Assembly: GCA_034722955.1 (NCBI GenBank)
Contig: JAYEOM010000031.1
Span: 1 to 20,631, forward strand
Reading direction: 5' to 3'
Source: Campylobacterota bacterium
GTDB taxonomy: Bacteria; Campylobacterota; Campylobacteria; Campylobacterales; Sulfurovaceae
DNA: 20,631 nt
Within the stretch, counting starts at the first letter, position 1. The number at the start of each line of letters is the position of its first letter. This document shows, one piece after another, positions 9,001 to 12,000 of this stretch. Position numbers: made by a program.

Positions 9001-12000
9001 AGAGAGTTGCTCTGCAAACTTCAGCAGATCGAACATAGATTTGGTAGGAGACGCTCTATAAAAGATGGTCCTAGGACATTGGATTTGGATATTATATTTT
9101 ATGATGATATCCAGATGACCTCTAGAGTGTTGACGATACCTCATCCTGGGTGGAGAGATAGAAGCTCTGTTTTGATACCATTGAAATATATGAAGGGCAG
9201 AGCATGATCAATGTTGTACTAGTTGCCCCTACGCCTCAAGAGGCTTATGCGATAGCTACCGAGAAGTATGGAGGTGATTTTGTCTTAGTCTCTGCAAAGC
9301 AGATACAAAATAGAGATGAAGAGGAGAGTAGTTGTGAAATCACTATCAGTGTCTCAAAAGAGCGATTTTTAGAGCTCATAGATATAGACGAGGAGGAGGA
9401 TCTGCAAGAGGAGCTCTCTCTACTGAGAGGTCAAATTTCACAGATGGAAGAGGATATGAAAACATATTACTCTAGCAAAGAAGAGACATTGATAGAGAAG
9501 GTTAAATCTATCTTTGTAGGTAAAGGTATCGCCAAAGAGTGGCTTGATGTTGTGTTGGAACCTCTGATCGGCTCTACGGTTGCAGAGGATGAGAATCTTC
9601 TAGTTGCATATCTGCTAGATGAGATCGATGAGACGCTAGAGATAAGAGAAGAGGATCTATCCAAACCAAAAGTGATGATGTTTGTTGGTCCTACAGGGGT
9701 AGGGAAGACAACTACTGTTGCCAAGCTGGCTGCAAGATATGCCTATATGATGGATGAATCGCATCAAGTTGCACTAGTCAATCTAGATAGCTTTAGGGTT
9801 GGTGCTTTTGAGCAGCTGGCACACTTCGCTGACATTATGAAGCTCAAACATGTCACAGCGAGCAGTGTTGATGAGTTTGGAGAAGTATATAGCAAGCTGA
9901 AGGGTTATGATGTCATCTTGATAGATACTGCAGGTATGTCTCCTTTCGATACACAGAAGCTCATCAATACAGTAGAGTATCTCAGTTTGGACCATACTCA
10001 AAATATAGAGGTCAATCTAGTGATATCATCTACAGTCAAGTATGAAGATATCAAAGATATTCATGACACTTTCTCTTTTCTCAACCTAAATAGTGTAATA
10101 CTCAGTAAATTTGACGAGACTAAGTATCTCGGGGCAATACTGAGCTATCTGCTTTTGAACCCTGTCCCTATAAGCTACTTTAGTATTGGTCAAGAGGTAC
10201 CAGATGATCTTGTAGTAGCCAGCAGAGAGTATCTTCTTCAGAAATTTATAGGGGATTTGGATGCATGAAACACAGGTAGAGCAGCTGAAAAAGATGATGA
10301 GTTATCTGCCAGTCATCTCCCATGTAGAAGTCTGTTTTCCTATGGTAAAGATCAAAAAAACTTTGGTAGACAAACTATCCAAGGGAGATATCCTGCCTCT
10401 TCAAACTAAGGAGATATCTGTTGATATAGTTCAAGATGGATATATCATTGCCCAAGGTGTTTATGGAGTGTACCAAAACACCCCCTCTGTTTTGATACAA
10501 GAGTTGCGAAATAGTGCAATAGAGTCTATTCATAGTAAAAAATATTATACTATCAAAATCTCTTTTGGTACGATAGAGAAGCAGCAAGTTGAGAGTGGTA
10601 AGATCATCACACTTACAAAAGAAGCCCTCCATGATGCACTGCTCTACAGTGGCGAACAGCTTTTAGCAGAAGCTGCATTGGTAGAGTGGGATCATAAGGC
10701 AGCATTAGAAATCAGAGAGGTGAAGTAGAATGGCACAAAAAGTATTGGTAGGTATGAGTGGCGGTGTGGATTCGACTGCGGCTGCGATACTCCTGCAGAG
10801 AGAGGGTTATGAGGTAGAGGGTGTATATATGAGACTGCATGACAAAGAGGGGTACCATGAGACCAACTTTGCCAAAGCAGAACGGGTAGGAGCCTATCTC
10901 GCTATCAAAATACACTTTCTTGACCTATCCCATGAGTTTAAAAATGAGGTCTATGACTACTTTGTAGAGGGGTACAAAGAGGGGTTGACACCAAATCCCT
11001 GTGTGATATGCAACCGTACGATCAAGTTTGGCAGGATGGTTGAATTCGCCGATACTATCGGTGCAGATTTCGTCTCGACAGGACACTATCTGAAGTGTGA
11101 TGGTGAGTATATCTATAGAGCTAGAGATGAGAGTAAAGATCAGAGTTATTTTCTATGTGAAGTAAAAAAAGAGGTTCTCCCAAGATTGATCTTTCCTCTA
11201 GGAGATTGGCTCAAAGAGGATGTCAAAGAGTTTACTAAAGATATTGAGATACTAAAAGATATCGCAACTCAAAAAGAGAGCTCAGAGATCTGTTTTGTCG
11301 AAGGTGACTATACAGATGTTCTGGAAAAACATATGAAGATAGATATGGCTGGGGAGACTATCGACACAGATGGTACCGTGGTGGGTACACATAAAGGCTA
11401 TATGCACTATACCATCGGAAAGAGAAGAGGTTTTTTTGTCAATGGTGCCCATGATCCTCACTTTGTTTTGGATATCAAACCAGATGAAAATCAGATCGTT
11501 GTAGGTACACGGGAGAAGCTAGAAGAGAGTGCTTTTGAAGTCAAACAGCTCAATCTTTTTGATCTGGGTATTAGTGATTTTGAGTGTAGTGTAAAGGTAC
11601 GCTATCGTACCACTGCCATGCCTGCTAGGGTGGTAGTCGATGGGGAGAGGGCTACAGTGACGCTGAGAGAGCCTGTGTTTGGATTGGCACGGGGGCAGAT
11701 CGCAGCATTTTATGATGTGGATAGACTGCTTGGTGGTGGAGTGATCTGCTAAGGTTACCGAAAACAGATCTACTCCAAGCTAGACTTCCCTAAAACTCTC
11801 ATATACTCCCAAAATCCTCACATCATCAGCAAAAAATGCCAACTCATCCAGAGCAAGCTTGAGTGATTCTGAGTCGATATGCCCATCGATATCAATATGA
11901 AATTGACTCCCTGGAACTATTTTGGTACCCATATAACTCTCAAGTTTCAGTAGATTGATACTGTGTATTGCAAAACCGCCAAGTGCCTTGTAGAGGGCTG

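Follow-up and report, generated by a model that had tools for sequence, protein, structure and literature searches.

An FlhF GTPase kept beside an FlhG-helix/SPOA fusion protein in Sulfurovaceae that lack a flagellum

The flhF locus and the proteins it encodes

The window, a contig of 20,631 nucleotides from a genome of the Sulfurovaceae, contains a run of genes (aroQ, a Xaa-Pro peptidase gene, folK, flhF, a partner gene designated X, and mnmA) that lie on one strand with every junction overlapping or abutting. The first-pass annotation placed flhF beside folK and a 155-amino-acid ORF after it; the coordinates listed here bear this out and set the pair between folK and mnmA. A promoter scan returned 20 sites where 17.2 were expected.

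7126..8710, + strand: aroQ and the Xaa-Pro peptidase gene, where the conserved gene run begins
8707..9207, + strand: folK, the upstream flank (TIGR01498 above cut-off), its stop overlapping the flhF start
9204..10268, + strand: flhF, encoding an SRP-type GTPase of 354 amino acids with FlhF 8R9R and 2PX0 as best structural matches
9204..9353, + strand: N-terminal FID-type domain of FlhF, strand-helix-strand-strand in the AF2 model (E2-8, H11-22, E27-35, E42-50)
9666..10250, + strand: G domain of FlhF with intact G1 (162-171), G2 (D195-R198), G3 (D241-G244), G4 (S301-D304) and G5 (G329-D334)
10261..10728, + strand: X, 155 amino acids, an FlhG activator helix followed by two SPOA domains
10261..10302, + strand: enhancer (activator) helix of X, residues 1-14, FlhG-derived, with Gln5 (codon 10273-10275) and Leu9 in a QxxxL motif
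10321..10518, + strand: first SPOA domain of X, residues 21-86 (PF01052, E 6.8e-9; hhalign FliN 79%, FliY 32%, FliM 30%)
10543..10722, + strand: second SPOA domain of X, residues 95-154, FliY/FliN type (hhalign FliY 96.3%, FliN 95.6%, FliM 76.7%)
10730..11752, + strand: mnmA, the downstream flank (NF001138 above cut-off)

The GTPase is closest to TIGR03499, as first proposed (E 2.5e-47), with a score of 162.2 bits that lies just below the equivalog cut-off of 174.15. The FtsY model matches it more weakly than FlhF models do (E 8.6e-26), its top PDB matches by sequence and by structure are FlhF, and separate FtsY-sized and Ffh-sized paralogs are encoded on other contigs of the genome. It is an SRP-type NG GTPase with G1 to G5 that stands nearer to FlhF than to FtsY or Ffh. 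Descent from flagellar flhF at the same locus is indicated by its place after folK, where flhF also lies in flagellated relatives, and by the tree. The setting differs from that of a standard FlhF in that neither a full flhG directly downstream nor a flagellum to position was found. Seven of nine FlhF relatives come from records labelled Sulfurovum or Sulfurovaceae.

At 354 amino acids, the protein is shorter than FlhF of flagellated relatives (406-526 amino acids), the linker being shortened. Its N terminus has the three strands and one helix of the FliG-interacting domain (FID), as that domain is defined in the accessible text of PMC11236974. Pairwise BLASTP of single FID sequences gave no alignment, whereas profile comparison with FIDs of flagellated relatives did match (hhalign 97%). 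The domain is less basic than theirs, with a mean net charge of -1.9 (58 sequences) versus +1.4 (22 sequences); the fold has been kept and basic residues have been exchanged for a new signature. The FID is retained here although the genome gave no FliG match; FlhFs of genus g8 have lost the FID as well as X. The GTPase motifs are intact in 58-59 of 59 FlhFs accompanied by X, versus only 15-20 of the 30 that lack it. They are intact in the FlhF described here too, as had been claimed, but the further claim that all are invariant or nearly so does not extend to G2, whose Arg (R198 here) gives way to Lys in 29 of 59 X-bearing and 20 of 30 X-less FlhFs.

The AF2 model of X (pLDDT 89.9) contains a helix at residues 3-14 and then two SPOA domains, and it aligns with 4YXB/4YXC (Foldseek E 3e-7, TM 0.66-0.69, about 16% identity), in agreement with the likeness recorded on first pass. 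X had been described as a FliM(SPOA)-FliN-like fusion. The tandem SPOA part of that description stands; a mere FliM-FliN fusion it is not, since an N-terminal FlhG helix is also present. Assignment of the first SPOA domain to FliM by profile failed (FliN 79% versus FliM 30%). Profiles match the second domain to FliY and FliN alike and leave the first ambiguous, so that reading the pair as FliM plus FliY draws on gene order.

The accessible portions of PMC12826062 and 10.1101/2022.03.19.484964 describe a Gln in the N-terminal helix of FlhG that stimulates FlhF and is co-catalytic. In X, Gln5 is the sole invariant column among 56 orthologs that are 13-46% identical to the copy here. Gln is found in 136 of 136 and QxxxL in 134 of 136 intact-start relatives among the matches listed (50%-cluster representatives, 150 listed of 233 matches, with 14 N-truncated sequences left out). 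When ORFs were chosen by position alone, 58 of 59 had Gln at positions 4-7 and 55 of 59 had QxxxL, compared with 147 and 18, respectively, of 1165 background ORFs; the lone Gln miss is a start picked too far upstream. The N termini of X align with those of FlhG (hhalign 95%), and an HMM built from FlhG N termini alone placed 37 of 56 X N termini above the 99th percentile of background. The helix of the genome studied here is divergent (Gln-Val) and scores modestly; it is equalled by 12 of 2929 background N termini.

X thus carries an enhancer helix with a conserved Gln like that of FlhG (DQAxxLR type). The MinD-type ATPase domain and C-terminal membrane-targeting helix of FlhG are absent, X being SPOA-folded to its C terminus; we do not class X as FlhG, and in action it may resemble FlhG's activator part. 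With C-ring proteins X shares the SPOA domain, TIGR02480 scoring far under its cut-off. It has no CheC-like middle domain of the kind found in FliM and FliY, because the helix and two SPOA domains fill all 155 amino acids, and the genome gave no FliG/FliF ring for it to join. The fold is also similar to that of SctQ, a tandem-SPOA protein inside a type III export system, of which no FHIPEP-family gene was found. We infer with good odds that X would act as a chimeric activator, neither FlhG nor a C-ring protein.

Origin of the pair and its history after loss of the flagellum

No match to FlhA, FliG, FliF, CheW or the rod motif was found in the genome (99.97% complete), and the flagellated genome G007 was positive each time. 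Searches by tblastn with the fliM, fliY, fliN, fliA, flgV-position, fliH, cheX and motA/B proteins of relatives likewise gave no match, and with flhG the only match was MinD. In G007, flhA and fliFGH lie between genes that are directly adjacent here; their absence is thus due to clean deletions and not to assembly gaps. For the proteins searched (FlhA, FliF, FliG, CheW, rod motif, motA/B and others), the absence of flagellar export, rod, C-ring and motor genes and of CheW therefore holds. The family is described as non-motile through a single loss of flagella in the accessible part of PMC5401914.

In flagellated relatives (22 loci extracted, 23 fetched), the ancestral run reads folK-flhF-flhG-(small gene)-fliA-fliM-fliY, usually followed by mnmA. 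X occupies the interval from flhG to fliY. Its start overlaps the flhF stop, as the flhG start does in those relatives, and the end of its second SPOA domain abuts mnmA, like fliY in G007; for this domain, gene order favours FliY. As gene order and sequence show, a deletion in the ancestral run very probably spared flhF and fused the initial ~15 codons of flhG with a pair of SPOA domains from the C ring.

FlhA scored above cut-off in 4 of 151 family genomes, all of genus g7, and flhF was found in 126 of the 151 (E<=1e-30). The proposed retention of flhF across aflagellate Sulfurovaceae is confirmed in this larger set: flhF is present in 122 of 147 FlhA-less genomes and in 83 of the 94 that are of high quality. 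X is present in 74 of the 147, and 73 of these 74 also carry flhF. Five of the 25 flhF-negative genomes, re-searched with a g8 query, gave weak paralog matches only. Among these five, folK abuts mnmA in three, other DNA follows folK in G057, and G055 has no folK match either, which an assembly gap may explain. Elsewhere in the order, orphan FlhF was sought in five genomes without an FlhG match; three gave only weaker FtsY/Ffh-sized matches, G155 has a divergent FlhF inside a flagellar cluster, and G157 has one FlhF match above cut-off.

Both genes evolve under purifying selection, as had been claimed from fewer comparisons of sequence pairs. In the genus of the present genome (seven sequences), tree-wide omega values are 0.084 (G domain), 0.147 (FID) and 0.231 (X), compared with 0.055 (mnmA) and 0.146 (folK); the corresponding values in genus g4 are 0.057, 0.085, 0.191, 0.052 and 0.087. 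Across five genus-level sets, G-domain omega ranges from 0.035 to 0.084. FlhF without X is still under purifying selection (omega 0.054 in g3 and 0.074 in g8). Eleven pairwise estimates agree, although many are near saturation; just 3 of these 11 pairs have dS <1 in the G domain and in X alike.

In the FlhF tree (32 rows, genus g8 left out), sequences from FlhA-less genomes group together as a single clade (SH-aLRT 100) with a long stem, and the G-domain stem measures 0.71 versus 0.026 in controls. The pattern is one of a burst of change, then constraint. A tree of MnmA plus FolK (48 rows) rejects the grouping of all FlhA-less genomes in one clade (p-AU 0.013), so that the two trees conflict on whether flagella were lost once. 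Relative to MnmA plus FolK, the G domain evolves at a rate of 0.37 in flagellated genomes, 0.79 with X and 1.61 without X (92 loci). FlhF is faster after loss of X (11 loss clades versus 17 X clades, p=0.006). This decay is not concentrated at the predicted interface with X (p=0.17, 6 versus 61 positions).

A putative FlhF switch and its possible link to division

Two FlhF NG domains with GTP, Mg and residues 1-30 of X were modelled as a complex. The predicted complex scored 0.74, compared with 0.01 for the best control; the mark applied is reached by 116 of 157 solved pairs and 2 of 215 mismatched pairs. Contact agreement among runs was at least 78%, and pLDDT of the partner at least 58. In the model, Gln5 sits between the two protomers: in one it is predicted to touch the G5 loop (Q330-V332) as well as T170, in the other the region of the G2 Arg (F197-V199). 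Leu9 is predicted to pack against A173, A177, F208, I211, M212, V332 and P333. A similar complex has been solved (3SYN), so that the prediction may have passed because its structure was already familiar to the predictor. We read the model as a likeness to such complexes, not as binding.

FlhF has been kept together with the activator helix of FlhG, which suggests an FlhF-activator switch that dispenses with the FlhG ATPase and the flagellum. On conservation, the literature and the predicted complex, X is quite probably a dedicated activator of the FlhF GTPase. Several results weigh against the explanation: continued constraint on FlhF where X is gone, decay that does not focus on the predicted interface, the frequent Lys at the G2 Arg, the divergent helix of the present genome, and the conflict between trees. 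Its helix would dock onto the GTP-bound FlhF dimer, Gln5 would complete the composite active site, and FlhF would go back to the monomer. The single-chain SPOA pair could act as the mount for the helix, the fusion replacing the service of the C ring to FlhG in flagellated cells. FlhF-GTP would sit at the cell poles, where the retained, re-surfaced N-terminal domain may bind a new partner, and the module may help to exclude division from the poles, overlapping partly with MinCDE. The cellular output that we rank first, tentatively and at somewhat less than even odds, from distribution only, is that the module marks the poles and takes part in placing division. For the whole of this explanation (fusion, switch and pole marking), we estimate a probability of roughly 45%.

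The link to division draws on the Min system. MinD is found in 56 of 151 family genomes and MinC in 55. The 94 high-quality FlhA-less genomes divide into 10 with X and Min, 38 with X alone, 28 with Min alone and 18 with neither; the last group includes all 13 of genus g3, and also G008, which lacks flhF as well. The present genome carries flhF, X and minCDE together; this co-occurrence and the genomes with neither X nor Min count against the division reading. Among high-quality genomes, flhF is missing from 10 of 38 with MinD versus 1 of 56 without it; these counts overstate independence, because genus g8 alone accounts for the majority of flhF losses. In genus g4, MinD is present in 5 of 7 X-less versus 1 of 22 X-bearing genomes. 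Counted by eye, X has been lost ~16 times, 10 of them with MinD; we do not rely on a binomial test of these numbers. Without X, the relative FlhF rate is 2.19 with MinD and 1.12 without (6 versus 7 clades, p=0.004, post hoc). With X, Min status has no effect on the rate (0.74 versus 0.75). In a quick MinD tree (21 rows), copies from g4 and g2 are scattered and do not follow the species tree, which suggests, with modest support, that MinD was gained several times. Cell shape or lifestyle could be a confounder of the Min pattern.

A precedent exists in C. jejuni, which has no Min system and in which flhF, flhG, fliF, fliM, fliN and fliY mutants form minicells, according to the accessible text of PMC3228812 and PMC6946799. 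The retained FlhF, the part of FlhG and the C-ring SPOA domains of the present pair all correspond to such minicell genes. The difference is that in C. jejuni the FlhG protein inhibits and an assembled MS/C ring is the landmark, neither of which exists here; in the portion of PMC3228812 available, FlhG is itself the division inhibitor, and its overexpression suppresses an flhF mutant. A pole or division role in Sulfurovaceae would thus need another effector, because X lacks the ATPase domain of FlhG. It is conceivable, if rather doubtful, that Sulfurovaceae recast the circuit for flagellar placement as a self-contained polarity switch for division or another polar process, without the FlhG ATPase, and that acquired MinCDE is displacing it lineage by lineage. 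If true, a minimal GTPase-based polarity module would have arisen from the wreckage of a molecular machine.

Relation to known systems and other readings

The closest known system is the FlhF-FlhG switch of B. subtilis, Vibrio, Shewanella and C. jejuni (PMC12826062, in part). Both have an SRP-type GTPase with FID and NG domains, and in both the gene directly downstream brings an N-terminal helix with a co-catalytic Gln. Here, in contrast, two SPOA domains carry the helix in place of the MinD-type ATPase and its membrane-targeting tail; FlhG, FliG, FliF and a flagellum were not found, and Lys often replaces the G2 Arg. The single-chain, intertwined SPOA pair is shared with the engineered FliM(SPOA)::FliN fusion (4YXB/4YXC) and with T3SS SctQ, from which X differs in that it is natural, is preceded by the FlhG helix and is accompanied by no FliH match or export apparatus. 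The sections of PMC12826062 available describe FlhF and FlhG as always encoded together and devoted to flagella. An FlhF kept with the activator helix of FlhG alone would separate its GTPase cycle from flagellar assembly and from the FlhG ATPase.

The genes themselves have been tabulated before. Passages of PMC9321776 state that Sulfurovum and Nitratifractor lost all flagellar genes, which the pair was first taken to contradict. Yet S8 Table of the same paper already lists an adjacent gene pair in Nitratifractor salsuginis, Sulfurovum sp. NBC37-1 and S. lithotrophicum as FlhF and FliN-1; for Nitratifractor these stand in the FlhF column (200) and the FliN-1 column (74). Adjacent locus tags and sizes of 353-362 and 153-177 amino acids, which match the pair here, make it very probable, from tags and sizes and not from sequences, that this is the same pair as flhF-X. 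In those passages it goes uncommented, with no helix, fusion, selection or Min link. The literature searched, mostly papers outside subscription, yielded neither a report of an FlhG helix fused to SPOA domains nor any function assigned to this FlhF. Novelty is thus limited: both genes are in S8 Table, and the helix fusion was not found in print. A flagellum-independent role of FlhF, as first proposed, is supported by its retention, by selection and by the clean loss of the remaining flagellum; it does not simply stand against the published view.

The family is abundant at vents and seeps, and the pair is a clear example from nature of genes being fused and co-opted as a molecular machine was lost. 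As a two-protein system it allows three questions to be tested: what FlhF does beyond the flagellum, how poles are found in Campylobacterota (C. jejuni lacks HubP, according to part of PMC6946799), and how division is placed in Min-less members.

Among other readings, the one that fares best keeps the switch and changes its cargo, placing type IV pili, a secretion system or an attachment structure at the pole. We consider it unlikely. Polar cargo does exist: two PilB/GspE-like and two PilT-like ATPases are encoded here, and PilT occurs in 147 of 151 family genomes. The N-terminal binding domain has been kept with a new surface, and a role unrelated to Min would explain the constant FlhF rate across Min status when X is present. 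Pili nonetheless appear independent of the module, PilT being present in 28 of 28 g8 genomes of which 17 have no flhF match; no pilus gene adjoins flhF in the window, and pilus placement leaves the Min pattern unexplained. PilT was rejected as a co-lost partner because its presence in 147 of 151 genomes gives no discrimination.

Less likely again is a non-spatial job in targeting, secretion or gene regulation, arising from SRP ancestry or from side functions of FlhF. In Bacillus cereus, a GTP-dependent FlhF dimer supports hemolysin secretion, according to the accessible text of PMC7218170, and in Sulfurovaceae selection still acts on FlhF where X is absent and, in g8, where the N-terminal domain is gone too. 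The separate FtsY- and Ffh-sized paralogs argue against such a job, and Dornes et al., in the available part of PMC11236974, report no evidence of FlhF working with SRP; nothing in the present results speaks positively for such a job.

We regard it as improbable by a wide margin that the pair is a slowly dying relic, kept by translational coupling between folK and mnmA. Overlapping or abutting junctions throughout the run would fit coupling. So would the graded series of states, which runs from both genes through flhF alone and a shortened flhF to neither: at least 11 clades have lost X separately, X evolves fast (13-46% identity to the copy here), and 25 of 147 genomes gave no flhF match. Decay is difficult to reconcile with a G-domain omega near that of mnmA, and coupling would not preserve one catalytic Gln in 136 divergent proteins. 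The folK-mnmA spacer is moreover dispensable, because clean deletions have left folK directly beside mnmA in G008, G019 and G022.

It is scarcely credible that X came from outside as a T3SS protein of the SctQ kind with tandem SPOA, or that it is an ordinary FliN: its architecture is that of SctQ, its Atlas structure neighbours include SctQ/SepQ clusters (TM 0.60-0.71) and S8 Table of PMC9321776, as available, lists it under FliN-1, yet 147 of 151 genomes gave no match to the FlhA/SctV family, the Atlas neighbours align only from residue 10-18 on, and X lies exactly in the flhG-fliY interval with the FlhG helix at its start.

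Flagellar genes and FlhF in genera g7 and g8

PMC5401914 characterises Sulfurovaceae as non-motile. Within the family, flhA is kept in a single genus, designated g7 (genomes G007, G018, G028 and G038). The ancestral flhF-flhG-fliA-fliM-fliY run is complete in the g7 loci that we examined (L074:5455-10728 and L039-L042), and one member of the genus, G007, also contains fliF, fliG, rod and CheW genes. The same genome encodes a stand-alone FliG C-terminal-domain protein of 138 aa (L179:1486-1902) that is distinct from fliG.

FlhF of a second genus, g8, is reduced to about 290 aa and lacks the N-terminal domain (L082, L083, L088, L089 and L145-L147). 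Its G1, G2 and G3 motifs are changed; nevertheless, omega is 0.074. The flhF search returned no match in 17 of the 28 g8 genomes.

FlhF and FlhG beyond the family, and MinD

In G155, a genome from a different family, a flagellar cluster includes a strongly divergent FlhF with degenerate GTPase motifs (L202:5485-6867), and no FlhG was matched in this genome at E<=1e-40. Rows 44-45 of S8 Table in PMC9321776 list putative FlhG entries, of 394 and 254 aa and at the FlhG position, for the aflagellate species Campylobacter gracilis and C. hominis.

The genome bearing the window contains a complete minCDE on contig C124 (L201:3284-4952). The distribution of MinD across Sulfurovaceae is patchy, with no match in any of the four g7 genomes, and the MinD tree departs from the species tree.

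Other genes in the window

Four further features lie in the window:
2-1749, minus strand: short ORFs
1861-5539, minus strand: 739-aa fusion of a multiheme cytochrome c with HEAT/TPR repeats, and an adjoining DUF4405 membrane protein
13628-15193, plus strand: protein of 521 aa whose catalytic domain is of the T6SS Tle1-like type (DUF2235; E 4.5e-77 in Pfam)
17898-20276, plus strand: STAND-like P-loop NTPase (792 aa) that also contains a winged helix as well as TPR repeats

The short ORFs resemble RHS-repeat fragments, possibly with a C-terminal tip and immunity gene, and a transposase-like remnant. Two of these ORFs matched no Pfam family, and the sole Pfam match of the last was a weak one, to an HTH. 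No secretion genes were recognised in the window close to the Tle1-like gene. The STAND-like NTPase is possibly a defence sensor.
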